A stretch of 13,310 nt of DNA from Candidatus Fervidifonticultor secundus (GTDB lineage: Bacteria; Sysuimicrobiota; Sysuimicrobiia; Sysuimicrobiales; Humicultoraceae): the NCBI GenBank assembly GCA_031459385.1, contig JAVKIP010000038.1, positions 1 through 13,310 on the forward strand, in the 5' to 3' direction. Each line of letters begins with the position of its first letter. Position 1 is the stretch's first letter. This document shows, in pieces, positions 735 through 13,233 of the stretch. Under the pieces are notes generated by a model. It saw nothing but the letters and a program-made list of their open reading frames with translations. It did not search any database and was not told the origin of the DNA. Position numbers and translations under genes: made by a program.

Positions 735-1565
735 ATGATGACTCCCGCATTCAAGCGCGTCCTCGCTCCGCTGGACGGCTCGCCGCTGGCCGAGCGTGGT
801 CTCGACTACGCCGTCCGCCTAGCGCGTGCGTTGGGCGTCGGCCTCGCGCTGGTCCGCGTCGTGACCAATCGCCGGCAGGCCCCCTCCGCCCGGCTGTACC
901 TCGAGGAGGTGGCCCGGGGAGCAGCGGCGGATCTGGAGACGGGCATTGAGGTCCGCTACGGCGACCCCGCGCGCGAGATCCTGGCCGCCGAGCGTGAGGG
1001 CGACCTCTTGGTCATGACGTCTCACGGCGCGACGGGCCTCGAGCGGTTCTTGCTCGGGAGCGTCGCCGATCGGGTCCTGCGCTACGGGCGCGCGCCGGTC
1101 TTCCTGGCGCGGGCCTTCCATCCGCCGGCGACGGTCCTCTCGCCGATCCTGGTGCCGCTGGATGGCTCTGAACAGGCCGAGGCCATTCTCCCCTACGCAA
1201 CGCTGTTGGCACGGACGCTGGGTGCAGATCTGAAGCTCCTCCGGGTGATCCACGCCCGGGCGTTCGACACCGTGGCGTATCCACCCCAGATCGTGGAGAT
1301 GACGTTGGAGTGGGAACGCGCCGAGGGCCACCGGTACATCGAGCGACTCGTGCAGAGGCTGGCCGCGGACGGCCTCCGGGCGCGCGGCAGCGTGCGCGAA
1401 GCCGAACCCTTCCAGGCCATCGTGGAGGCGGCCGGGGAAGAAGAAGGCGGGCTCATCGCCATGGCCACCCATGCCAGGACCGGACTGGTCCGGACGCTGC
1501 TGGGCAGCGTGGCCGCCAGCGTCAGTGAGCATGCCTCCGATCCGGTCCTGCTGCTGAAGGTCTAG
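735..1565 (+). CDS. Universal stress protein with two UspA domains
   Basis: Two Usp repeats: RVLAPLDGSPLAE...LVMTSHGATGLERFLLGSVADRVLR and ILVPLDGSEQAE...IAMATHARTGLVRTLLGSVAASV. SD GGAGG at 726-730; the start is ATG 735 or 738. Confidence 0.93.
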   Translation: MMTPAFKRVLAPLDGSPLAERGLDYAVRLARALGVGLALVRVVTNRRQAPSARLYLEEVARGAAADLETGIEVRYGDPAREILAAEREGDLLVMTSHGATGLERFLLGSVADRVLRYGRAPVFLARAFHPPATVLSPILVPLDGSEQAEAILPYATLLARTLGADLKLLRVIHARAFDTVAYPPQIVEMTLEWERAEGHRYIERLVQRLAADGLRARGSVREAEPFQAIVEAAGEEEGGLIAMATHARTGLVRTLLGSVAASVSEHASDPVLLLKV

Positions 1566-1574
1566 GCGCCGTCG

Positions 1575-2747
1575 GTGGATCTGGCGGGGCTGCTGCCGGT
1601 CGTCGCCGCAGGCGTGGCCGCGGCTGCTGAGGCGCGGCGCCACTGGGTCTGCTTGCGCAGCATCAGGCACCGCATCCACGTCAACGGGACCAGAGGCAAG
1701 TCGAGCGTGGTGCGGCTGATCGCGGCCGGCCTGCGTGCGGGCGGCCTGCGGGTGGTGGCCAAAACCACCGGGTCGGCGCCGCGCGTCATTCTCCCCGACG
1801 GGTCAGAACGCGACCTGCGGGGTCGGCGCCGCGCGTCGTTGCTCGAGTACCGCAGCGCAGCCGCGCTGGCGGCGCGGCTGCGCGCCGACGCGCTGGTCGC
1901 AGAGTGCATGGCCTTGCGGCCGGAGTCCCAGCGCGTCGCCGAGCACTGCCTGATGCGTTCGACCGTCGGCGTACTCACCGGTGTCGGGCTCGACCACGTG
2001 GGGATCATGGGCGACTCCCTCGCCGAGATCGCCGAGGTCCTGGGCCGGACGATCCCTGCAGGCGGCCTGCTCCTGGTGCCGGGCCCGGAGGTGCCGCCGG
2101 TCTGGCTGGCGAGGGCGCGGGCGCAGGGAACCGTGGTCCGCCTCGTGCAGGTCGAGTCCGGGGTTGTGATGCCTGAGGCCTATCGCGAGTGGCCCGAGAA
2201 CGTGGCCCTGGCCCTGGCCGCCTGCGAGGAGGTAGGGGTCTCGCGCGAGGCCGCGCTCTCCGGTATCAGGATGGCCTCTCCGGACCCTGGTGCCCTGCGG
2301 ATCTGGAGACTTCGGGAACCGGGGCGCCAGACCTTGCTCATCGGAGCGTTCGGCGCCAACGATCCGGACTCATCCCGGCGGATCATCGAACGCGTGCGCC
2401 GGGAGTCCGGCCTGGCAGACGCGCCGGTGGTCGCGGTGCTCAACACGCGCGCCGACCGGGGTGAACGCACCTTGCAGTGGTGCGAGGCGTTGCTGGCCGG
2501 TGCGGTACCGGCCAGCCGCGTGATCGTCACCGGGCCGCACGCCCCTGCGGCCGTACGGATTCTGGTACGGGGTGGGTGGCCACGGCAGGACGCGGCGGCG
2601 GCGCCCCCGCGTCCTGCCGCGATCACCGCTGCCGCAGTGGCCCAGCGCGGTGCTGCCGTTGTCGCCGGCCTGGGCAACGTGCGCGGCGCCGGTGCCGCGC
2701 TGTTGGACTACTGGGCGACGGTCGCCGAAGAGATCGTCCGTGGCTGA
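1575..2747 (+). CDS. pgsB: Poly-gamma-glutamate synthase PgsB/CapB (Mur-ligase superfamily)
   Basis: N-terminal hydrophobic anchor, then RIHVNGTRGKSSVVRLIAAGL (P-loop), AKTTGS, ECMA, DH-x-x-x-MG, PDPGAL, AFGANDPDS and NTRADRGERT, all matching PgsB/CapB motifs. 390 aa, and overlaps pgsC. Confidence 0.93.
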   Translation: MDLAGLLPVVAAGVAAAAEARRHWVCLRSIRHRIHVNGTRGKSSVVRLIAAGLRAGGLRVVAKTTGSAPRVILPDGSERDLRGRRRASLLEYRSAAALAARLRADALVAECMALRPESQRVAEHCLMRSTVGVLTGVGLDHVGIMGDSLAEIAEVLGRTIPAGGLLLVPGPEVPPVWLARARAQGTVVRLVQVESGVVMPEAYREWPENVALALAACEEVGVSREAALSGIRMASPDPGALRIWRLREPGRQTLLIGAFGANDPDSSRRIIERVRRESGLADAPVVAVLNTRADRGERTLQWCEALLAGAVPASRVIVTGPHAPAAVRILVRGGWPRQDAAAAPPRPAAITAAAVAQRGAAVVAGLGNVRGAGAALLDYWATVAEEIVRG

Positions 2748-3171
2748 GCCCATCGGCATCGGTCTGATCGTCTCGCTGGTGCTCTCCGAGGCCGTGGGCC
2801 TCTCAGCCGGAGGGCTCATCACCCCGGCCTACCTGGCGCTGCTGGCGGATCAGCCATGGCGGCTCGCCGGGACCCTGATCGCCGCGACGCTGGCGCTTGG
2901 TATCTACCGCGCGATCGCGGCTTTCCTGATCCTGTTCGGGCGGCGGCGGTTCGTCGCCATGGTGCTGCTGGGTATCCTGTGCAAGTGGGCGGTGACGGCG
3001 CTCGCGCCGGGCCTGGCTGCGACGGTGGGCGTGCCCGTGGGCGCCGTGGGCTTCGTCCTGCCAGGGCTCATCGCCAACGACTTCGAGCGGCAGGGCGTGC
3101 TGGCGACTCTGGCCATGCTGGCGCTGGCGACCGCGGCCTGCGTCCTGGCCTTGCGCGTCCTGGGGTACTGA
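2740..3171 (+). CDS. pgsC: Poly-gamma-glutamate biosynthesis membrane protein PgsC/CapC
   Basis: GTG at 2740 overlaps the pgsB stop, giving a 143-aa hydrophobic protein with IGIGLIVSL, GLSAGGLITPAYLAL, LILFGRRRFVAMVLLG and VGFVLPGLIANDFERQG (CapC motifs). The track's 2572 start adds a spurious extension. Confidence 0.93.
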   Translation: MAEPIGIGLIVSLVLSEAVGLSAGGLITPAYLALLADQPWRLAGTLIAATLALGIYRAIAAFLILFGRRRFVAMVLLGILCKWAVTALAPGLAATVGVPVGAVGFVLPGLIANDFERQGVLATLAMLALATAACVLALRVLGY

Positions 3172-3172
3172 G

Positions 3173-4267
3173 ATGCGCTCGCGACGCTACGGTCCACGGG
3201 CGCTGCTCGCGATGCTCGCCCTGGCTGTGGCCGCAGGCGTCGGGACCCGAGCGGCCTCCCCGGTGCGCGATCCCCACAGCGGCGCCATGCGCCAGGCCGC
3301 CGTGCGCGCCGCCGACGCGATCGCGGTCATTCGCCGCGCCAGGCAGGCCAGGGGGCTGCCTCTCGATCCATACGCCGACCCAAATCGCACGGGTCTGGTC
3401 GGTGTCGAGTCCTCGCCCATCACCACCACGCTGGGTGACCTGGCGGCGAAGCGGACCACCACCAATCCCAACATGGCGGCCGCACTGGTGCGGTGGCTGG
3501 CCGAGGCTGGCGTGCGGCCCGGAGTCGTGGTGGCCGTCGGAGCGTCTGGTTCGTTTCCCGGGCTCATCATCGCGACCCTGGCAGCCGCGCATGCCCTGGG
3601 CGCCGAGCCCGTGGTCATCTCGTCGGTGGCGTCGTCGAGCTGGGGCGCGAACCTCCCGTCGTTGACGTGGCTGGACATGGAAGCCGCCCTGGTCGCCGCG
3701 GGGTGGGGGCCTCGCTCGGTGGCCGCCTCCCCTGGCGGGGACGCCGATGTCGGCGCGGGCCTGGACGCCGATGGGCGAGCGATGCTGCAGGCGGCGATGG
3801 CCCGCAACCGTGTGCCGCCCATCAGGGGCGAGGGCTTGCGCGAGCGCGTCGCCGCCCGGATGGCTGCCTATGATGCTGCGGTCGCGGGCCGGGCGCTGGC
3901 GGCGTTCGTGAACGTGGGCGGGGCCGCCGCCAACGTGGGGACCTGCCTCGGGATCCTCCGCGTCGCGCCGGGCGTGCACCGACGGCTCCCCGCGTGCCGC
4001 GGTGAACCCGGTGTCCTCTGGCTCATGAGCCGCCGCGGCGTGCCGGTCGTACACCTGTTGCACGTGGACGGCATTGCCGCTGCGTTCGGCCTGCCCAGGG
4101 ATCCGGTCCCGCTGCCGGTGCCCGGACTTGGAGCGCCGTTCGCCCGCATGCCGCGCCGGGCCGCCGTGGCCATGCTGGCGCTCCTGCTGAGCGGCATCGC
4201 CGTGATCGTGCGCTGGAACGAACGAACTGTGCGTTCCGTGCGGCCGACCCATCAGGTGGAGGCCTGA
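3173..4267 (+). CDS. pgsW: Poly-gamma-glutamate system accessory protein (PgsW / TIGR04332-like)
   Basis: Starts 1 nt after the pgsC stop. Motifs DPNRTGLVG, SPITTTLGDLAAKRTTTNPN, VAVGASGSFPGL, ISSVASSSWGAN, FVNVGG and GVPVVHLL are as recalled for this family. N-terminal signal/anchor and C-terminal TM helix. Confidence 0.82.
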   Translation: MRSRRYGPRALLAMLALAVAAGVGTRAASPVRDPHSGAMRQAAVRAADAIAVIRRARQARGLPLDPYADPNRTGLVGVESSPITTTLGDLAAKRTTTNPNMAAALVRWLAEAGVRPGVVVAVGASGSFPGLIIATLAAAHALGAEPVVISSVASSSWGANLPSLTWLDMEAALVAAGWGPRSVAASPGGDADVGAGLDADGRAMLQAAMARNRVPPIRGEGLRERVAARMAAYDAAVAGRALAAFVNVGGAAANVGTCLGILRVAPGVHRRLPACRGEPGVLWLMSRRGVPVVHLLHVDGIAAAFGLPRDPVPLPVPGLGAPFARMPRRAAVAMLALLLSGIAVIVRWNERTVRSVRPTHQVEA

Positions 4268-4287
4268 TACGGGCGCCGCGCGGGCCC

Positions 4288-4296
4288 TGCTATCGT
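4288..4296 (+). promoter_or_regulatory. Possible extended -10 element (TGcTATCGT) for an internal promoter
   Basis: TGn-TAnnnT pattern in the pgsW/DUF6305 spacer, 10 nt upstream of the strong SD AGAGGAGGTG (4307-4316). No clear -35. Confidence 0.3.
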
Positions 4297-4322
4297 CGGA
4301 GCTGGCAGAGGAGGTGGTCATC

Positions 4323-4880
4323 GTGCGCACCTGCCTGGCTGTGTGGCTGGCGGTGGCGCTGTTGGTTCTGCCCGACGCCGTCTGGGCGGCGCCATCGTTC
4401 ACCGCGGAACCGCCGGTCCTGCTCACATCCGCGGGGCAGAGTGCCGACCTCCAGATCGTCAAGGTCCTCCTCGACCGGCTCAAGGTCCCATTGATCACGA
4501 AGGCCCTCGCCAGGCCCGACGACCTCCGCGATGCCAAGACGCTGGTCCTGGCCATCGGCGGCAGTACCAAGGGGCTGGGGGCCGCGGGAATCGACGCCGA
4601 CGGCGAGCTCGCCAGACTGCAGGCACTCCTGGCCCGCGCTGGGGAGGCCGGGGTGAAGATCCTGGCGCTGCACGTGGGTGGCAGCGCCCGGCGGGGCGAA
4701 CTCTCGGACCGGTTCATCGCCGCCGTCGTGCCCAAGAGCGGCCATGTGGTAGTGGTCGCAGAAGGCAATGCCGACGGTCTCTTCACGAGGCTGACGGCGC
4801 AGTCGAAGGTGACCATGGAGACGGTGGACAGACTCGGCGATCTGGAAGGGGTGTTGCGCCGCATTTTCCGCGTCCGATAG
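4323..4880 (+). CDS. Exported DUF6305-like protein of unknown function
   Basis: The SD at 4307-4316 favours GTG 4323 over the track's 4314. Signal peptide MRTCLAVWLAVALLVLPDAVWA|A. Conserved-looking blocks PVLLTSAGQSAD, KTLVLAIGGSTKGLGAAGID, LHVGGSARRGELSD and GNADGLFT recall DUF6305. Confidence 0.75.
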   Translation: MRTCLAVWLAVALLVLPDAVWAAPSFTAEPPVLLTSAGQSADLQIVKVLLDRLKVPLITKALARPDDLRDAKTLVLAIGGSTKGLGAAGIDADGELARLQALLARAGEAGVKILALHVGGSARRGELSDRFIAAVVPKSGHVVVVAEGNADGLFTRLTAQSKVTMETVDRLGDLEGVLRRIFRVR

Positions 4881-4921
4881 GTCCGCCGGGCAGCGTCAAT
4901 CCCAAGGGAGGTGAACAGATC

Positions 4922-6613
4922 ATGCCCGCGCGCGTGGAGCGAACGGCCATTGCCTGTCTTGGCGTGCTCCTGATAGCCTCCATGGCGGCGCCCACCCCGG
5001 TGGGCGCGCAGACCGCGCGGCCGATCGCCGTGGGTCGGACGGGGATGGTGGCGTCGGCCACGCCGCTGGCCACAGAGATTGGCCTCCAGATTCTCGAGCA
5101 GGGCGGCAACGCCGTGGATGCCGCGGTGGCCACGGCGTTCGCGCTGGGTGTTGCCGAGCCCAACGCATCGGGTCTCGGCGGCGGTGGGTTTGTGCTTATT
5201 CGCCTCAGGTCGGGAGAGGTGGCGTTCATCGACTACCGGGAGGCCGCCCCTGGCAAAGCCACGCCCGACATGTATCTGGGTCCGGACGGCCGCGTGCGGC
5301 CCAACGCCACCACCATCGGTCACCTGGCCGTGGCCGTGCCCGGCACGCTGGCCGGCCTGGCCATGGCGCTGCAGCGCTACGGCACCATGAGTCTGCGGCA
5401 GGTCATGGCGCCGTCCATCGCCCTGGCCGAGCGCGGGTACGCCGTGACCAAGACGCTCAACGGAATCATGGTCGACAACCTGGCGAAGTTGAACATGTTC
5501 CCCGCCGCGGCCGCGGTATATACCAAACGGGGGTTGCCCTACGACGTGGGCGACCGTCTGGTGCTCAAAGACCTGGCCGCGACCTACCGGCTGATTGCAT
5601 CGTGGGGCCCCGACGTCTTCTACAGGGGCGAGATCGCCGACGCCATCGTGGCGGAGATGGCGCGCGGCCACGGGCTCATCACGAAGGAGGACCTGGCCAA
5701 CTACCGACCGAAGCTGCGCACACCGGTGCGCTCGACCTACCGCGGGTACGAGATCATCTCCAGCCCTCCGCCGTCCTCGGGCGGCACCCATATCATCGAG
5801 GCGCTGAACATCCTCGAGGGGTTCAACATGACGGCCCTGGGATTCCAGACGCCGGCAGCACTCCACGTCACCGCCGAGGCCCTCAAGCGGTCCTTTGCCG
5901 ACCGGGCGCGGTACATGGCCGACACCGACTTCGTGCCGGTGCCAATCGCCGGGCTGACCTCGAAGGCCTACGCCGAGACGCTGCGGCGGACCATCGATCC
6001 GAACCGCGCATCACCGGCCCCCTCGCCCGGCAACCCGGAGCCGTTTGCCAAGTCGGCCAACACCTCGCACATCTCGGTGGTGGACCGCGACGGGAACATG
6101 GTGGCGCTCACGCAGACCATCAACTACTTCTTCGGCTCCGGCGTGCTTGTGCCGGGCACCGGCATCATGCTCAACAACGAGATGGACGACTTCGTACCCA
6201 CGCCGGGTTCGGCCAACTCGGTGCAGGCAGGCAAGCGGCCGCTCTCCAGTATGGCGCCCACCATCGTGCTCAAGGACGGCCGGCCGTTCATGAGCGTGGG
6301 CACGCCGGGTGCCACCCGGATCATCTCGGCCCTGACCCAGATCATCATGAACATCGTGGACTATAACCTGGACATCCAGACGGCCATCGAGGCACCGCGC
6401 ATCCACGCCATGACCCGGGATGTCTTCCTGGAATCCCGCATCCCCCCCGACGTGCGCGAGGCATTGGCCCGCATGGGGCATCCCCTGCAGGTGCGGGGCG
6501 AGATGGACCTCTACTTCGGCGGCGCCCAGGGCATTGTGGTGGCGCCCAACGGCACACTCTACGGCGGCGCCGACCCACGCCGGGACGGGTTTGCCAGGGG
6601 GATCTGGCACTGA
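4922..6613 (+). CDS. ggt: Secreted gamma-glutamyltransferase (Ntn hydrolase; GGT/CapD family), 563 aa
   Basis: SD GGGAGGTGA (4906-4914) precedes ATG 4922, followed by a signal peptide. Motifs GGNAVDAAVA, EPNASGLGGGGF, IDYREAAP, VAVPG, PPPSSGG, the autoproteolysis site N|TSHISVVD (Thr codon 6062-6064), NNEMDDF, KRPLSSM and GGADPRR. Confidence 0.96.
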   Translation: MPARVERTAIACLGVLLIASMAAPTPVGAQTARPIAVGRTGMVASATPLATEIGLQILEQGGNAVDAAVATAFALGVAEPNASGLGGGGFVLIRLRSGEVAFIDYREAAPGKATPDMYLGPDGRVRPNATTIGHLAVAVPGTLAGLAMALQRYGTMSLRQVMAPSIALAERGYAVTKTLNGIMVDNLAKLNMFPAAAAVYTKRGLPYDVGDRLVLKDLAATYRLIASWGPDVFYRGEIADAIVAEMARGHGLITKEDLANYRPKLRTPVRSTYRGYEIISSPPPSSGGTHIIEALNILEGFNMTALGFQTPAALHVTAEALKRSFADRARYMADTDFVPVPIAGLTSKAYAETLRRTIDPNRASPAPSPGNPEPFAKSANTSHISVVDRDGNMVALTQTINYFFGSGVLVPGTGIMLNNEMDDFVPTPGSANSVQAGKRPLSSMAPTIVLKDGRPFMSVGTPGATRIISALTQIIMNIVDYNLDIQTAIEAPRIHAMTRDVFLESRIPPDVREALARMGHPLQVRGEMDLYFGGAQGIVVAPNGTLYGGADPRRDGFARGIWH

Positions 6614-6655
6614 GCTCCGGCCTGTCGGCCCCGACGCCCTGACCCAGTCTGCGGT

Positions 6656-7927
6656 ATGCTACAACCCGCGCTGCTGCTCGTGGCCATGACCGCGGTGTTC
6701 GTCGCGGCGGCCCTGGGCCTGCGCTGGCCGGTGGGGTTCTCGTTGATGCTCGGCGCGGTGGCCGGTACGCTACTGGCCGGCGAGGGCGTGCCGGTCCGCC
6801 ACCTGGTCGAGGGCAGCTTCGGTTTTCTCGACATCACCCTGATGATCGGTTCGGCCATGATCTTCATGAAGGTCTTGCAGCGCAATGGCCTGTTGGAGAC
6901 GCTGGGCCGACAGATCATCGACGGGTTGGGGGATCGGCCCGCGCTGCTGCTGGTGGCGCTGGCGCTGTTCATCATGTTTCCCGGCATGATAACCGGCTCG
7001 TCCAGCGCGTGCGTCTTCACCACGGGTGCCATCGCCGCACCGGTGCTGCTGGCTCTCGGCATCCCCGCGGAACAGACCGCGGCGATCATCGCTGTGGGCG
7101 CGGTGCTGGGCATGATCGCGCCACCGGTCAACATCCCGGCCATGATCATCGGCGGTGGGGTGGACATGCCATACGTAGGGTTCGGGCTCCCTCTACTGGT
7201 GCTCACAGTGCCGCTGGCGATGGGGCTGGTGCTCATGCTGGGGCGTCGCTTCGTGCGGGACCGGGCAGCGATCGCGCCCGACCGGCTGCCCGCCTCGCAC
7301 TACGCCCGCTTCGGCGCCAGGCTCTACCTGCCACTGGTTGTCGTCGGCGTGCTGATGTTTGGTCCCAAGGTGACGCCTCGCCTCCCGGATCTGGGCCTCC
7401 CCCTGATCTTTCTGCTCGGGGCCGCCACGGGGCTCGTCATCGGGCTGCCCATCCATCCCCTTCGCGTGGCCAAAGAGGCGGTACACGAGGCCCTGCCGGT
7501 CATGGGCATCCTGATGGGGGTCGGGATGTTCATCCAGGTCATGACCCTGACCGGGGCCAGGGGTGCGTTCGTGGTGGCGGCCCTGGTGCTGCCCGCCGCC
7601 TTGCTGTTTGTGGCGACCGCGGTGGCCATCCCGCTCTTCGGTGCCGTCTCGGCTTTCGGGTCTGCATCGGTGCTGGGCGTCCCGATCTTCCTGGCCCTGC
7701 TGGGTCGCAACGGGATCGTGGTGGGGTCGGCGCTGTCGCTGGTCGCGAGCCTGGGCGATCTGATGCCGCCCACGGCCCTGGCCGGGATCTTCGCCTCCCA
7801 GGTGGTCGGGCTGCCCGGCTATTTCGGGACGCTGCGGCGCTGCCTGATCCCGGCCGTCATCATTGATCTCGTGGGCATCGGCGCCCTGGTGTGGGCGAAC
7901 CCGTTGGCCCGGCTGCTCGGCCTGTGA
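6656..7927 (+). CDS. Ion-transporter superfamily permease (TRAP large subunit DctM-like / carboxylate transporter)
   Basis: 423 aa with about 11-12 hydrophobic segments. Repeated hairpin-like motifs FPGMITGSS...GMIAPPVNIP and FGAVSAFGS...GDLMPPTALAG are typical of DctM/IT transporters. No clear SD before the start. Confidence 0.8.
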   Translation: MLQPALLLVAMTAVFVAAALGLRWPVGFSLMLGAVAGTLLAGEGVPVRHLVEGSFGFLDITLMIGSAMIFMKVLQRNGLLETLGRQIIDGLGDRPALLLVALALFIMFPGMITGSSSACVFTTGAIAAPVLLALGIPAEQTAAIIAVGAVLGMIAPPVNIPAMIIGGGVDMPYVGFGLPLLVLTVPLAMGLVLMLGRRFVRDRAAIAPDRLPASHYARFGARLYLPLVVVGVLMFGPKVTPRLPDLGLPLIFLLGAATGLVIGLPIHPLRVAKEAVHEALPVMGILMGVGMFIQVMTLTGARGAFVVAALVLPAALLFVATAVAIPLFGAVSAFGSASVLGVPIFLALLGRNGIVVGSALSLVASLGDLMPPTALAGIFASQVVGLPGYFGTLRRCLIPAVIIDLVGIGALVWANPLARLLGL

Positions 7928-8070
7928 TGACCTGGATCTATCGGTGCATCGTGCTACTGCTGGTGGTCCTGGTCACCCTGGACCTGTTCGAGGAGCGCGA
8001 CCGGTTGCGCCAGGCCGTGGCGGTCATGGTCCTCGTGCCGCTGATCTTGCGCTTGCTGATGCTCAGATGA
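7927..8070 (+). CDS. 47-aa two-helix membrane microprotein (not in the ORF track)
   Basis: Translates as MTWIYRCIVLLLVVLVTLDLFEERDRLRQAVAVMVLVPLILRLLMLR*. The ATG shares the permease stop (TGATG, 7925-7929) and its TGA overlaps the next ATG (ATGA, 8067-8070). Third codon positions are GC-rich. Confidence 0.8.
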   Translation: MTWIYRCIVLLLVVLVTLDLFEERDRLRQAVAVMVLVPLILRLLMLR

Positions 8071-9197
8071 AGCGCACGCCGTGGCCGGCCCTGGGATTCG
8101 CCGCGGTGGCTGTGCTGGTGGCGGCCGCGAGCGGCCGCGCGTTCGTGGCGATGCGCGTGCCCGAGCCGATCTTCGCAGGACCGGGCGTCTCCCGACAGCG
8201 CTCGCTGGGGGCGTACAACCCTGTCCTGCGCGGCCGATCGGCCGACACGGGCGTCTACTTCCTCGACGGCGCCCGGCCCGGCGGCACGGTCCTGGTCCTG
8301 GGCGGGACGCATCCCAACGAGCCGGCCGGATACCTGGCAGCGGTGCTCCTCGTGGAGCGCGCCCGGGTTGCTGCCGGTCGCCTGATCGTCGTCCCGCGTG
8401 CCAACGGCAGCGCCTTCACGCACAACGACCCGCAGGAAGCCTCGCCCCAGACCTTCGAGATCTCCACACCCGGGGGGCCGCGCATCTTCCGGTTCGGGTC
8501 GCGCAACACCAACCCCATCGACCAGTGGCCGGACCCGGACGTCTATGTGCACGCCTCGTCGGGACAGCGCCTCTCGGGTAGCGAGGTCCGCAACCTGAAC
8601 CGCGCCTTTCCCGGTCGGCCCGATGGGACGTTCACCGAGCAGATCGCGCTGGCGATCACGACCCTGATCAGGGCCGAGGGGGTGGACCTGGTCATCGACC
8701 TGCACGAGGCGTCGCCGGAGTACCCGGTGATCAACGCCATCGTGGCCCACGAGCGGGCCATGCCCCTGGCGGCGGCGGTGTTACTCGAGATGCAGATGGC
8801 CGGCATCCAGATCGGGCTGGAGCCATCGCCCCAGAGGCTGCGGGGCCTCAGCCATCGCGAACTCGGCGACCATACACCGGCGCTGGCCGTGTTGATGGAG
8901 ACGCCCAACCCGTCACAGGGGCGCATCCGCGGCCGGACCAGCGCCGAGCTGGTCACCGGCGGCCGCGACGTGATCTACGAACGTGCCGCGGCGGCCGGTC
9001 GGCTGTTCGTGCCGTTCGACCCGGGTGGGTGGCCGATCGAGGTCCGGATGGGTCGCCATCTGGCCGGCGTGGGCCTCTTCGCCGCGAGGCTGGGGATCGT
9101 GCGCGCTGGCCGCGCCGTGATCATAGACGATCTTCCCGATCTTGCGGCCCTGCGGCGCAACGGGCTGGGCCGCTACCTGAGCCCGCCGCGGCCATAG
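8067..9197 (+). CDS. Exported M14-type zinc peptidase/deacylase (succinylglutamate desuccinylase/aspartoacylase family), 376 aa
   Basis: GGTHPNEPAG (HxxE, 8310-8321), LIVVPRAN, NLNRAFPG, VIDLHEA (third Zn ligand) and the probable catalytic Glu in METPNP. N-terminal signal/anchor MKRTPWPALGFAAVAVLVAAASG. The start is ATG 8067 rather than 7863. Confidence 0.87.
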   Translation: MKRTPWPALGFAAVAVLVAAASGRAFVAMRVPEPIFAGPGVSRQRSLGAYNPVLRGRSADTGVYFLDGARPGGTVLVLGGTHPNEPAGYLAAVLLVERARVAAGRLIVVPRANGSAFTHNDPQEASPQTFEISTPGGPRIFRFGSRNTNPIDQWPDPDVYVHASSGQRLSGSEVRNLNRAFPGRPDGTFTEQIALAITTLIRAEGVDLVIDLHEASPEYPVINAIVAHERAMPLAAAVLLEMQMAGIQIGLEPSPQRLRGLSHRELGDHTPALAVLMETPNPSQGRIRGRTSAELVTGGRDVIYERAAAAGRLFVPFDPGGWPIEVRMGRHLAGVGLFAARLGIVRAGRAVIIDDLPDLAALRRNGLGRYLSPPRP

Positions 9198-9300: not shown

Positions 9301-11583
9301 ATGCCTGCGGGGTTCACGCGTGAGGACGCGCTCGAATACCACACCCGCGGTCGGCCCGGCAAGATCGCCATCGCGCTCACGAAACCGTGTGCTACCCAGC
9401 GTGACCTGACCCTGGCGTACAGCCCGGGCGTGGCCGAGCCGGTTCGGGAGATCTACAAGCAGCCGCTAGACGCGTACACCTACACCAACAAGGGCAACCT
9501 CGTGGCCGTGCTCAGCAACGGAACGGCCATCCTCGGCCTCGGCAACCTGGGCGCGCTGGCCAGCAAGCCGGTCATGGAGGGTAAGGCGCTACTGTTCAAG
9601 CGCTTCGCCGACGTGGATGCCTTCGACGTCGAGGTGGACGCTACCACGCCCGACGAGATCGTGGCGGCTGGCAAAGCCATCGCCCCCACCTTTGGCGGGA
9701 TCAACCTGGAGGACATCAAGGCGCCCGAGTGCTTCGAGGTCGAGGAGCGACTCAAAGCCGAGCTGGACATCCCGGTCTTCCATGACGACCAGCACGGGAC
9801 GGCCATTATCAGTGGCGCTGGGTTGCTCAACGCCCTCGAGCTGGTCAACAAGCGGATCGAGGACATCAAGGTCGTCATCAGCGGCGCCGGCGCCTCGGCG
9901 ATCGCCAGCGCTGAGTTCTACGTTCGGCTGGGCGTGCGTCGCGAGCACATCACCCTGTGCGACACCAAGGGCGTCATCTACAAGGGCCGGACCGAGAACA
10001 TGAACCCTTACAAGGCACGGTTTGCGGTCGAGACCGAGGCCCGGACGCTGGCGGACGCCATGAGGGGTGCCGACGTGTTCCTGGGGCTCTCGGGGCCCAA
10101 CCTCGTCACCCGCGAGATGGTCCAGAGCATGGCGCGCGACCCGATCATCTTCGCCATGGCCAACCCCGATCCGGAGATTCCCTACGACGAGGCCAAGGCG
10201 GCCAGGCCTGATGCCATCGTGGCCACGGGGCGGTCCGACTACCCGAACCAGGTGAACAACGTGTTGGGCTTCCCGTTCATCTTCCGGGGAGCGCTGGATG
10301 TGCGGGCCAGGGCGATCAACGAAGAGATGAAGGTCGCCGCCGCCAAAGCGCTCGCCGCGCTGGCCAAGGAAGAAGTCCCCGAGACCGTGCTGCGGGCCTA
10401 CGGGCTCACCAGCCTGCGATTCGGCCGAGACTACATCATCCCCAAGCCCAACGACCCCCGGGTCCCGCTCTGGGTGGCCCCGGCGGTGGCCGAGGCAGCC
10501 ATGAAGTCGGGCGTCGCCCGTGTGCAGTTGGACCTCAAGGAATACCGGGATCGCCTCTCCCGCCGGCTCATCCCGGCCTGCGAGGTCATGAACGCCATTG
10601 TGGCGCAGGCGCAGGCCTCGCCGCGCCGCATCGTGTTCCCAGAAGGAGAGGAACCCGGGGTCATTCGGGCCGCGGTGGCCGTGGCCAAGGAACGCATCGG
10701 CCAGCCGATCCTGCTCGGGCGCTCAGAGGTCATCCGTCGGCGCATGGAGGAGATTCGGGTCACAGTCCCCCTGACCGTCATCGATCCCGAGCATGCCCCC
10801 GAGCGCGAGCGCTACGCCGAGGCACTGTTCTTCCTCCGGCAGCGGAAGGGCATGACGCGCCGTGAGGCCCTGACACGGGTGATCCGGCCCGTCATGTTCG
10901 GCATGCTGATGGTTCACATGGGCGACGCGGACGCGTGCATCGCCGGCGTGGCACACAACTACCCCGACGTGATCCGGCCCGCCCTCCAGGTGGTGGGCGT
11001 GGCGCCGGGATTCCGGAGGGTAGCCGGGCTCTATCTGGTGCTGTGGAACCACAAGGTCCTGCTGTTCGCCGATCCTACGGTGAACATAGAGTCGACAGCC
11101 GAAGACCTGGCCGATATCGCCATCATGGCCGCCGACCGGGCCATGCAGTTTCACTTGGCCCCCCGGGTGGCGATGCTGTCGTTCTCGAGCTTCGGATCCA
11201 CGCGGCATCCCCTGTCCGAGAAGGTCCGCCAGGCCACCGAGCTGGTGCGGCAGCGCCGGCCCGACCTCATGGTGGACGGCGAGATGATGGTGGAGACCGC
11301 GCTCAACCCGGAGCTGCGCGAGGCCGAGTACCCGTTCTCGGTGCTGAAGGGCGAGGCGAACGTGCTGATCTTCCCGAGCCTGGAGGCCGCCAACGTGGCC
11401 TACAAGCTCATGGAGCACTTGGCCGGGGCCACGGTCATCGGGCCCATCCTGATGGGCATGGCCCGGTCCATCCACGTCCTGCCCCGCGGGGCCGAGGTGG
11501 ACGCGATCGTGAACATGGCGGCGCTGGCCGTCGTCGACGCCCAGTTGCTGGAGCTGCGACCGCGCCGCGCTGCGGCGGGCTAA
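9301..11583 (+). CDS. maeB: NADP-dependent malic enzyme with C-terminal phosphotransacetylase-like domain
   Basis: ALEYH...[69 protein letters not shown] and [17 protein letters not shown]. The PTA-like domain has [17 protein letters not shown] and [23 protein letters not shown] at 9284-9291. Confidence 0.97.
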
Positions 11584-11624: not shown

Positions 11625-13157
11625 TCAGCGAGCCCGTTCCGGCTCCCAGCCGTAGACCGGCAGGATGTCGACTGGCGCGTAATCGTCGGTCAGCAGAGGC
11701 ACGTCGCTGGTGGCGACCCGGCCGCCGTAGTAGTCGCGGGCGTAGCGGTCCAGCGGCAGCGTCACCCGGCCGCTGGACCGCAGCGCTCGAGCAGCCGTCA
11801 GGATCTCGTCGGCATCGATCCCCGTTCGGCTCGTGGCGATCAGGACGATCGTGCGCGTGTCGGTCGTGATGCGGGCCGGGCCGAATGCCGCCGGGAAGGG
11901 ATAGAGCCCGGGGAACACCGAGCCGTAGGTCTTGTGTAGGGCGCGGTAGAGGCGGCTGTTGCTGCCCTCGAGTGCGCCGATGATGTTCGAGGCGACCAAC
12001 CCTCCCGGGTTGAGATGGTCACGGACGATCTCGAGGAATTCCCGCGTCGCCAGATGGAAGGGGATGCCCTCGGCGAAGTACGCGTCCAGCACGATCAGGT
12101 CGTATTTGGCCTCGGCGCGCCGCAGGTAGACCCGGCCGTCGTCCACGATGATCCGGTGGCGGGGGTGGTCTCTGACCTCGAAGAAGCGCTTCGCGACGTC
12201 AACGACCGCTGGGTCGAGCTCGACGCTGTCAACGGTCACCTCCGGGTAGTCACGCAGGAAGCGCTTGGGTATCGTGCCCGAACCCAGACCGATCACCAGG
12301 ACCCGCCTGATAGTGGGCTGGAACGCCAGCGCCAGGTGGGCGTATGACGTGTAGAGGAAGGGGCTCTCGTAGGGGTTCTTCAGGACCATGCCGCCCTGGA
12401 ACGACCGGTTGAAACGCAGGTACCGGTTCAGACCGTCCTCCAAGACGCTGATCTGGTGATACGCGCTGTCCTTCTCATAGATGACCCGCTGCTGGGGCAG
12501 CCGGATCGGCCCACCCCGGGCCGGCGCCGTAGTCAGCACCAGGGCGACCGCTGCCGCAGCGGAGAGGACCGGCCGCGCGGTCCTCTGGCCGGTCAGGACC
12601 AGGAGGCCGGCCAGGACCAGGAGGCCGCCACCAAGCAGGATCAGGATGGCCCGCACGCCCATGGAAGGGATCAGGAAGAACGCCGTGGCGATGGTGCCGA
12701 AGATGCTGCCCGCGGTCGACAGGGCGTACAGGACGCCGGCGCTGGTGCCGACGGTCGCCAGGTCGCGTGCGACCAGCTTGATGGCGAACGGTGAGGTCGT
12801 CCCCATCAGAATGCTGGGTAGTGCGAACAGCACGATGGATGCCAGCAGTGGGCCAAGCCGCGGGCCCAGATTCCAGGTGTCGAACGCCCACAGCACGGGC
12901 CGGGAGACCACGTTGAGCGCCAGGATCGTCACGCCGGCCAGCGCCAGCAGCGTGGCCAGCACCCCGGCTCTGGGCCACCGGTCGGCCATGGTACCGCCCA
13001 GGTAGTACCCGAGACTGAGCGCGGCCAGGAAGATACTGATCAGCCCGCCCCAGACGAAGACCGAACTCCCGAAAAACGGCGCGATCAGCCGGCTGCCCAC
13101 GATCTCCAGGCCCATCAGGATGGCACCGCTCCCGAAGACCACCACACGCAAGATCAC
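11625..13157 (-). CDS. Fused MFS-like membrane domain / spermidine-synthase-like class I SAM-fold protein
   Basis: About 7 N-terminal TM segments (GAILMGLEIVGSRLIAPFFGSS, GYYLGG, YALSTAGSIFGT), then EKDSAYHQISV, VLVIGLGSGT, VELDPAVVDVAKRFF, DDGRVYL, YDLIVLDAY, HLATREF and LTDDYAP. GGAGG lies 6 nt upstream of GTG 13157, favouring it over 13172. Confidence 0.88.
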   Translation of the reverse strand: MILRVVVFGSGAILMGLEIVGSRLIAPFFGSSVFVWGGLISIFLAALSLGYYLGGTMADRWPRAGVLATLLALAGVTILALNVVSRPVLWAFDTWNLGPRLGPLLASIVLFALPSILMGTTSPFAIKLVARDLATVGTSAGVLYALSTAGSIFGTIATAFFLIPSMGVRAILILLGGGLLVLAGLLVLTGQRTARPVLSAAAAVALVLTTAPARGGPIRLPQQRVIYEKDSAYHQISVLEDGLNRYLRFNRSFQGGMVLKNPYESPFLYTSYAHLALAFQPTIRRVLVIGLGSGTIPKRFLRDYPEVTVDSVELDPAVVDVAKRFFEVRDHPRHRIIVDDGRVYLRRAEAKYDLIVLDAYFAEGIPFHLATREFLEIVRDHLNPGGLVASNIIGALEGSNSRLYRALHKTYGSVFPGLYPFPAAFGPARITTDTRTIVLIATSRTGIDADEILTAARALRSSGRVTLPLDRYARDYYGGRVATSDVPLLTDDYAPVDILPVYGWEPERAR

Positions 13158-13233
13158 AGCGTGCCTCCCCACCGAGATCCGGCCAACACTTCGCCCCTGG
13201 CCGCGATCGGGCCTTCTGCCCCAGCACGCTGAT

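Follow-up and report, generated by a model that had tools for sequence, protein, structure and literature searches.

To our knowledge, research on poly-gamma-glutamate (PGA) has been almost confined to Bacillus. In Bacillus subtilis (pgsBCA(E), pgdS and an unlinked ggt) a hydrolase gene adjoins the synthase operon and an exported gamma-glutamyltransferase (GGT) degrades the polymer from its N-terminal side, and in Bacillus anthracis (capBCADE) a GGT-family gene lies within the synthase operon itself (accessible part of PMC4497714). Here we describe an eight-gene cluster of the hot-spring bacterium Candidatus Fervidifonticultor secundus, carried by contig JAVKIP010000038.1 (the window is this entire contig, 13,310 bases at about 70% G+C), in which genes for a PGA synthase precede those for a DUF6305 protein, a GGT, a DctM-like permease, a microprotein and an M14 zinc hydrolase. 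From the families of these genes, the order in which they stand and their joint occurrence in many phyla and genomes, we propose, with a probability of roughly 0.65, that the cluster encodes a PGA synthase without PgsA, joined in one operon to a module for turnover and uptake.

The window shares with B. subtilis the PgsB and PgsC core and an exported GGT, the small subunit of which is closest to the Bacillus enzymes, but its third synthase gene belongs to TIGR04332 and not to PgsA/CapA, there is no NlpC/P60 PgdS, and ggt is found inside the operon together with DUF6305, the DctM-like permease with its microprotein, and an AstE-like M14 gene. As in B. anthracis, a GGT-family gene forms part of the synthase operon; however, CapD anchors the polymer to the cell wall, whereas the GGT of the window is far closer to canonical GGTs, CapA is missing, and permease, DUF6305 and M14 are extra. 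The pgsB-pgsC-pgsW cassette known from Fusobacterium is recovered as well, the window passing the cut-offs of TIGR04012, TIGR04011 and TIGR04332, but the name of TIGR04332 conveys membership of a PGA system only and the window adds five further genes. In two Fusobacterium loci (L035 and L045) GGT, DUF6305, permease, microprotein, M14, pgsB, pgsC and pgsW follow each other in one row, and a third (L028) has the same row up to the end of the sequence within pgsC; Fusobacterium nucleatum is said to have been described as a PGA producer by Candela in 2009. The existence of NCBIfam TIGR04332 implies that the three-gene cassette is already known to curators, and we did not find the five-gene addition described. 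In a full-text literature search, with most subscription journals outside its coverage, no paper named DUF6305 and none joined pgsB with an AstE-like enzyme (succinylglutamate desuccinylase); nothing relevant was found on TIGR04332 or the 'poly-gamma-glutamate system protein' (the one match is on Francisella), nor, among the matches listed, on PgsW. A description of the module was not found in the accessible parts of PGA reviews and of a 2015 PgsB/PgsC survey (scope PgsB, PgsC and PghP), and the words glutamate, capsule and polyglutam are all absent from the main text of the paper on the phylum (PMC11604079).

The eight genes occupy positions 1575-9197 and are listed here with their best family scores (in bits, against the family cut-off) and, where relevant, lengths in amino acids (aa):

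1575..2747, + strand, pgsB (TIGR04012, 292.4 bits against 222.7, residues 14-379 of 390 aa)
2740..3171, + strand, pgsC (TIGR04011, 117.3 against 96.45; PF14102, 115.5 bits)
3173..4267, + strand, pgsW-type gene (TIGR04332, 299.5 against 100)
4314..4880 or 4323-4880, + strand, DUF6305 gene (PF19823, 156.2 against 25, covering 1-154 of 154)
4922..6613, + strand, ggt (TIGR00066, 563 against 357.85)
6656..7927, + strand, DctM-like permease gene (PF06808 DctM, 41.4 against 23.8, residues 15-387)
7927..8070, + strand, microprotein gene, 47 aa (no family)
8067..9197, + strand, M14 gene (PF24827 AstE_AspA_cat, 42.5 against 25)

A first-pass annotation, made from the letters alone, had reported eight co-oriented genes with gaps of at most 55 nt and three overlaps, and the coordinates bear this out: pgsB and pgsC overlap by 8 nt, pgsC and pgsW are separated by 1 nt, and spacings of 46 nt (55 nt with the DUF6305 start at 4323), 41 nt and 42 nt follow between pgsW, DUF6305, ggt and the permease gene. 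The permease and microprotein genes overlap by 1 nt (TGATG, the microprotein ATG lying on the permease stop), microprotein and M14 by 4 nt (ATGA), and these three genes are translationally coupled. Families were sought for each protein and the searches placed all of them above cut-offs, the microprotein excepted, which has no family. The absence of an evident intrinsic terminator from the cluster gaps also held: in a consensus scan of the window we counted six terminator-like sites (3.4 +/- 2.3 in shuffles), all within coding sequence and none in the cluster gaps, and no promoter-like site, a result compatible with a single transcription unit, though such scans are weak tests at 70% G+C. An Rfam scan of the window gave no match and it contains no tRNA.

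PgsB is the ATP-dependent amide ligase of PGA synthase and scores above the equivalog cut-off of TIGR04012, and PgsC is the small polytopic synthase subunit of the membrane, hydrophobic along its entire length. The position of PgsA/CapA, directly after pgsC, is occupied by the TIGR04332 'poly-gamma-glutamate system protein', which has no match in a Pfam scan or in a PDB sequence search, and the third gene of the Bacillus type (PF09587) is not in the cluster. The AlphaFold (AF2) model of the pgsW-type protein (pLDDT 89.6) displays helices at 8-26 and 328-355, predicted to be N- and C-terminal membrane helices flanking an extracytoplasmic alpha/beta domain; no structure matches it in Foldseek at E<=0.001, and its best VIA match (Z 7.8) is generically Rossmann-like and supports no functional conclusion. 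Relatedness between pgsW and DUF6305 was considered and rejected (hhalign probability 0.6%). Four PF09587 (PGA_cap, CapA-like) genes lie elsewhere in the source genome, on contigs C6, C28, C47 and C20, unlinked to pgsBC; they say little about PGA, since 7 of 14 control genomes have PF09587 as well.

The link between the module and the synthase was followed in other genomes by scanning a species-level genome collection with a DUF6305 profile built from 16 aligned proteins. A DUF6305 relative is encoded by 440 of the 493 candidate stretches, and the best 80 loci were analysed with up to 10 kb per side, neighbours being called with phmmer from the window proteins against six-frame open reading frames (ORFs). 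When at least 8 kb was available on both flanks (35 loci), GGT was found in all 35, the permease and a strong M14 match in 33 each, pgsB, pgsC and pgsW together in 27, and a detectable microprotein in 26; where the sequence continued for at least 3 kb downstream (64 loci), permease and M14 were each present in 62. Across the 80 loci the gene after DUF6305 is the permease in 67 and GGT in 11 (another gene in one, the contig end in one); DUF6305 is preceded by GGT in 49 loci and by pgsW in 8, and pgsBCW may stand upstream of the module, downstream of it or on the opposite strand. The loci carry about ten phylum labels, namely Sysuimicrobiota, Armatimonadota, Bacillota, Spirochaetota, Thermodesulfobacteriota, Myxococcota, Pseudomonadota, Acidobacteriota, Fusobacteriota and Actinomycetota. 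Cultured species are among the carriers, for instance Fusibacter paucivorans, Rectinema subterraneum and Oscillibacter valericigenes (L057, L073, L033).

The pgsB-less loci followed up do not come from genomes without it. The genomes of the eight full-flank pgsB-less loci, together with those of L007 and L011, all encode a TIGR04012 protein above cut-off elsewhere (10/10), as compared to 1 of 14 control genomes. Two loci (L013 and L017) keep only pgsBCW-DUF6305-GGT, and in both genomes the permease-microprotein-M14 row is present at another place. We then considered 94 genomes of the window's own phylum, with PgsB counted at E<=1e-20 and the M14 orthologue at E<=1e-50, and found DUF6305 in 9, PgsB in 10 (9 above cut-off) and the M14 orthologue in 11. 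All nine DUF6305 genomes also have PgsB and M14, a tenth (G038, 340 contigs) has PgsB and M14 with DUF6305 not found, and PgsB thus accompanies M14 in 10 of 11 genomes. The exception, G017 (98% complete), lacks PgsB and DUF6305 and has a partial M14 match only (C9:7997-8422, residues 87-228, 84% identity). This partial match may be the remnant of a lost cluster.

In an even sample of 201 Clostridia genomes (completeness at least 90%; M14 scored in 200), PgsB is above cut-off in 4, the M14 orthologue occurs in 3 of 200, and DUF6305 is above cut-off in 8; all three M14-positive genomes (G008, G181 and G230) carry PgsB and a module-type DUF6305. An even sample of Spirochaetota had DUF6305 above cut-off in 1 of 151 genomes, the centre genome alone, which is too rare for co-occurrence. 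The genome samples contain kin and the draws are not independent, and the counts are given without a test statistic. Altogether, neighbourhoods and genome samples agree that DUF6305, permease and M14 co-occur with pgsBC-pgsW across phyla, and the module-type genes are found with pgsB (10/10, 3/3 and 10/11) and not, as the first-pass annotation had allowed for, mostly in genomes lacking pgsBC.

The window GGT scores 464 bits against E. coli GGT, 396 against Bacillus GGT and 141 against the large chain of CapD. It is an Ntn hydrolase, with Thr381 aligning with residue 1 of solved small chains. Its small subunit is best matched by those of Bacillus GGTs, ungapped over residues 1-122, and over the whole aligned range the small chains of E. 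coli and H. pylori exceed it by 8 and 12 residues. Bacillus GGT has no lid loop and takes PGA as a substrate. By its sequence, the window enzyme appears to resemble these lid-less enzymes and to be of the canonical hydrolase type, not of the CapD anchoring type. The first-pass annotation had envisaged a circuit in which the polymer is made, anchored, trimmed and re-imported. Because the GGT is canonical and not CapD-like, the anchoring step finds no support; making, trimming and re-import fit with the exported or anchored state of GGT, M14 and DUF6305 and with the coupling of the permease to M14. A single N-terminal hydrophobic segment is seen on each of these three proteins, which suggests signal peptides or membrane anchors.

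For the M14 protein, in which this segment spans residues 8-31, the nearest sequence relatives in the PDB are 2qj8, DoeB (6twm) and 3na6, all deacylases of the AstE/AspA group. Fourteen sequences from several phyla share H82 and E85 (HxxE), R179 (NLNR), H213 (DLHEASPEYP) and E278 (LMET); H82, E85 and H213 make up the zinc site and E278 would be the catalytic residue, and identity across phyla outside the window's own clade is 55-62%. With 40.8 bits against the DoeB equivalog (cut-off 402.7), the protein is the orthologue of no named enzyme. A precedent for such an enzyme acting on PGA is given by PghP and PghL, zinc PGA hydrolases that fold like carboxypeptidase A, bind the metal through His-Glu-His and have a distal catalytic Glu (accessible part of PMC6506827). 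The M14 protein has a site of the same kind, but it belongs to a different family (PF24827 only), is about twice as long and is membrane-anchored, and its relatives of known function (DoeB, AstE) release a terminal amino acid from N-acyl compounds.

Many loci also have a second AstE-like M14 paralogue of about 270 aa beside pgsB or pgsW, which the window lacks. It was seen in Bacillota, Spirochaetota, Acidobacteriota and Varibaculum loci, and five of the six paralogues scanned score 56-64 bits with PF24827 (the sixth 34 bits):

L070:13116-13919, small M14 paralogue
L041:13770-14591, small M14 paralogue
L031:13334-14194, small M14 paralogue
L060:5305-6129, small M14 paralogue
L033:4833-5771, small M14 paralogue

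In one database protein (P0165, 652 aa) the small paralogue is fused to the large M14 enzyme.

The permease is a polytopic, DctM-like member of the IT superfamily with a weak and distant PF06808 match; an NCBIfam scan gave no family and there is no meaningful solved relative by sequence. Its identity across phyla outside the window's clade is 47-58%. The microprotein, with two hydrophobic segments, was kept in all 16 loci chosen for alignment, with Y5, V35, P38, L41, R42 and L44 invariant, and has no match in Pfam and NCBIfam scans. A search of its profile against 1.84 billion representatives returned 353 matches at E<=0.001, and the best 150 of them are 39-158 aa long, mostly 47-50 aa, with no fused form seen among these 150. 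We propose that it is a small subunit of the permease. The arrangement recalls TRAP transporters (DctP, DctQ, DctM) in that a DctM-like protein stands beside a small membrane protein and an exported protein, and one permease relative is named 'TRAP transporter large permease subunit' by NCBI. In contrast to TRAP systems, neither the microprotein nor DUF6305 belongs to a DctQ or DctP family, the permease matches DctM weakly, at 41 bits, and DUF6305 has a single Rossmann-like lobe, about 155 aa in length, and is no two-lobed receptor.

The database protein corresponding to the window's DUF6305 has 185 aa, its ESM Atlas entry runs from residue 4, and the start at 4323 is the more likely one. The N-terminus is a signal sequence in the window and lipoprotein-like (LxAC) in Bacillota loci. 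The AF2 model (pLDDT 89.1) is a single three-layer alpha/beta domain, Rossmann-like, for which the sole Foldseek match at E<=0.001 is a BRCT domain (TM 0.21). The best VIA matches (Z 10.3-9) are ribokinase-like and glycosyltransferase half-domains, generic and without functional conclusion; the profile found only weak dihydropteroate synthase and integrin I-domain stretches among PDB sequences (E of at least 0.005), and an ESM Atlas search gave no usable match. Sixteen DUF6305 sequences share T38, G41, Q42, D45, G82, G83, S84 and G87, and further H120, G122, G123, R127, G128, S131, D132, G151 and D154. In the model these residues lie just past predicted strands, which would be the usual position of a ligand site in such folds.

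The Pfam family extends beyond the PGA loci. Five of the eight DUF6305-positive Clostridia, all five without PgsB, carry a second subfamily (loci L082-L086) that is 24-29% identical to the window's protein, as compared to 43-56% for module members. GGT, permease and M14 are absent nearby; instead, a family-5 peptide-binding protein (SBP_bac_5) is encoded directly upstream (5/5), a histidine kinase directly downstream (4/4 with sequence there), and a response regulator after the kinase in all three loci scanned (for example L084:8136-12480). This row may represent an unstudied peptide-sensing system. In a quick maximum-likelihood run, a careful search being unfinished, the five sister rows are set apart from 82 module-type rows, the window's included, by a long branch (SH-aLRT 100%). 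The divergent context and the split in the tree indicate that Pfam DUF6305 comprises at least two subfamilies, one of them at PGA loci; the link of DUF6305 to PGA that had been suggested on first inspection is accordingly valid for the module-type subfamily and not for the Pfam family overall. The sister subfamily keeps TSAGQ, S84, G92, E98, R101 and GG122-123 and not H120, R126, R127 and D132, a pattern that fits a common scaffold with subfamily-specific ligand contacts. A Ser-His-Asp hydrolase, an idea raised by weak Foldseek rows (SGNH esterases, cutinases), was set aside as less likely because the sister subfamily does not keep His120 and Asp132.

Fifteen longer DUF6305 relatives were found. 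DUF6305 is fused to the permease in a 572-aa protein and in a 578-aa member from a different source (P0252/P0406), and three DUF6305 copies, an acidic linker and the permease form proteins of 987 and 1005 aa (P0246/P0408); these fusions represent two lineages with two contigs each, and an unfused 415-aa permease shares a 90% cluster with the triple fusion. A 668-aa form looks like a read-through after a truncated DUF6305 and is possibly an artefact. Others are tandem double or triple DUF6305 proteins (one triple on 22 contigs, another in locus L074, 326-2233), a protein combining TPR repeats, a TctC receptor domain and DUF6305, and a 400-aa protein (P0251) in which a Mur-ligase middle domain is joined to DUF6305. 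The fusions to the permease and to the TctC receptor suggest that DUF6305 is the extracytoplasmic binding partner of a carrier. Together with gene order and the context of the sister subfamily, they point, tentatively, to a binding partner of membrane proteins and not to a PGA-specific enzyme. It is conceivable, though no better than a speculative proposal at this stage, that DUF6305, permease and microprotein constitute an unrecognised binding-protein-dependent secondary transporter tuned to gamma-glutamyl products. DUF6305 would then be a single-lobe solute-binding domain, oligomeric, that passes its ligand to the membrane partner, and the sister subfamily would serve its histidine kinase likewise.

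We infer from family membership and context what all the substrates are, which way transport runs and what DUF6305 does; the system could operate as follows. PgsB, PgsC and the TIGR04332 protein would build the polymer from cytoplasmic glutamate and extrude it. On the outer side of the membrane, the exported GGT of the lid-less type would strip gamma-glutamyl units from the amino end of PGA as an exo-hydrolase, and the membrane-anchored AstE-like M14 zinc hydrolase would free glutamate from the carboxyl end or cleave gamma-Glu-Glu. The products, glutamate or short gamma-glutamyl peptides, would be taken up by the DctM-like permease and its 47-aa subunit, with DUF6305 acting at the permease as an exported ligand-binding domain. 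In this way the cell could reclaim glutamate, carbon and nitrogen that it had stored in its own PGA, or use the polymer as a coat that retains water or protects against stress. The strongest support comes from the tie between module and pgsB at the level of genomes, the exported hydrolases, the coupling of permease and M14, and the precedents for a GGT and a zinc carboxypeptidase fold acting on PGA. The cluster addresses how PGA is made without PgsA, reclaimed and its products imported in phyla other than that of Bacillus, and offers testable roles for four unnamed families, namely DUF6305, a distinct DctM-like carrier, the microprotein and a distinct M14 clade. As a compact gene set it marks PGA metabolism under the phylum labels given above, including gut Clostridia, Fusobacterium, spirochaetes and hot-spring lineages. 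Should the hydrolases act as proposed, they would be new exo-acting PGA-degrading enzymes, in part from thermophiles; should DUF6305 be a receptor, the known kinds of binding-protein-dependent transport and sensing would be widened.

Several observations weigh against a synthase coupled to turnover and uptake. Synthesis and degradation from one operon amount to a futile cycle unless they are regulated, and no regulation was identified. The synthase can be independent of the module, as the Clostridia genome G250 has PgsB without DUF6305 or M14. Besides, the module proteins are better conserved (median identity 45-53%) than PgsB, PgsC and PgsW (34-37%) and the DUF6305 tree intermixes phylum labels, which implies that the module travels as a unit of its own; a separately moving module could be used for scavenging foreign gamma-glutamyl compounds. 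The contig, of 13.3 kb, may have been mis-binned or acquired by a recent transfer, which bears on the owner of the operon and not on its function. Finally, the RNA evidence consists of assembled contigs, from which strand, level and a single transcript are not readable and in which DNA carry-over is possible. In one hot-spring metatranscriptome run 42% of sampled cluster words were present, and its assembled contigs covered each of the window's 30 bins at an identity of at least 95%; 77 contigs aligned to the window, 34 of them at 99% identity or more, one of 501 nt (1235-1735) bridging the junction of pgsB with the upstream universal stress protein gene (usp) and one of 446 nt bridging the permease/microprotein junction. 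This gives a hint that the cluster region is transcribed. Two apparent joints in the same run (1900->8934 and 8009->11835) were rejected as chimeric contigs, each resting on a single contig with a 21-letter side.

One alternative is that the downstream genes belong to the machine for biosynthesis and export. GGT and M14 would then set chain length or release the polymer, as proposed for PgdS, which in the accessible part of PMC4497714 is suggested to free chains from the synthase. DUF6305 would be an extracytoplasmic assembly factor, and the permease would supply or exchange a substrate, for example by exporting glutamate or an ion. The eight loci with DUF6305 directly after pgsW (the window's clade and delta-type loci), the two that hold only pgsBCW-DUF6305-GGT together, and the joining of a Mur-ligase middle domain to DUF6305 in P0251 are all in line with such a function. 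DctM-type carriers of the IT superfamily are known importers, however; the order of the module relative to pgsBCW is free, the permease-microprotein-M14 row stands alone in one locus, far from pgsBCW (L088), and G250 makes do without the module. We therefore regard this alternative as unlikely.

The module might instead scavenge external gamma-glutamyl compounds in general (the PGA of others, glutathione, peptides), being merely co-regulated or co-transferred with the synthase, with DUF6305 as a sensor or binder. That it is better conserved than the synthase and spread by transfer would suit this role, as would the neighbours of the sister DUF6305 in pgsB-less genomes, namely a peptide-binding protein and a two-component sensor, and the accessible part of PMC4497714 argues that PGA may feed non-producers. 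A pure scavenger, however, would be expected often in non-producers, and no sampled genome has module-type genes without pgsB, save for the partial match in G017; this makes general scavenging quite improbable. That unrelated genes are simply packed on a small contig is hardly credible, since the promoter and terminator scans may be uninformative at this G+C content but the gene set recurs under about ten phylum labels, with coupled translation and with co-occurrence at the level of genomes.

The source genome bin comprises 3.3 Mb in 59 contigs (completeness 97.6%, contamination 5.5%). The nearest named record is a metagenome-assembled genome of Candidatus Fervidifonticultor quintus (L002), with a DUF6305 96% identical to the window's and flanking genes identical in kind; it is assigned by NCBI taxonomy to Candidatus Sysuimicrobiota, previously called CSP1-3, and the records of some relatives are labelled Armatimonadota. 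In the own-phylum sample, two genomes of the same genus (G011 and G012) are without DUF6305, PgsB and the M14 gene, and one of another genus (G015) carries the cluster with an M14 gene 96% identical to the window's, so that the cluster is accessory and patchy.

Twelve genes were recognised in the window from the ORF listing, start-codon inspection and family scans, and the four outside the cluster are:

3-713, + strand, 3' end of a Dpp/Opp-type (GsiD-like) ABC permease gene
735..1565, + strand, tandem universal stress protein, usp (PF00582, 152 bits, two stretches)
9301..11583, + strand, maeB, MaeB-type NADP-malic enzyme (NF009501, 799.6 bits, below the cut-off of 1178; PF01515, PF00390, PF03949)
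11625-13172, opposite strand, convergent with maeB, fused MFS/spermidine-synthase gene

The top NCBIfam rows for the ABC permease fragment include nickel, dipeptide and glutathione importers, every one below cut-off, and usp begins 21 nt downstream of it on the same strand. As usp ends 9 nt before the start of pgsB, the transcription unit may start upstream of 1575; the operon possibly begins at usp and may be stress-responsive. Within the locus set, only the nearest relative, L002, also has usp next to pgsB. At the other end, maeB starts 103 nt past M14 on the same strand; only L002 and L005, both close relatives, have this order. The enzyme is possibly linked to the cluster through metabolism, on a route from glutamate through the tricarboxylic acid (TCA) cycle to malate and pyruvate, and we left maeB outside the system. 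The pair of maeB and the MFS/spermidine-synthase gene is likewise found 3' of M14 in L002 and L005, and in L088 a spermidine-synthase-like gene (13563-15068) lies near the stand-alone permease-microprotein-M14 row.

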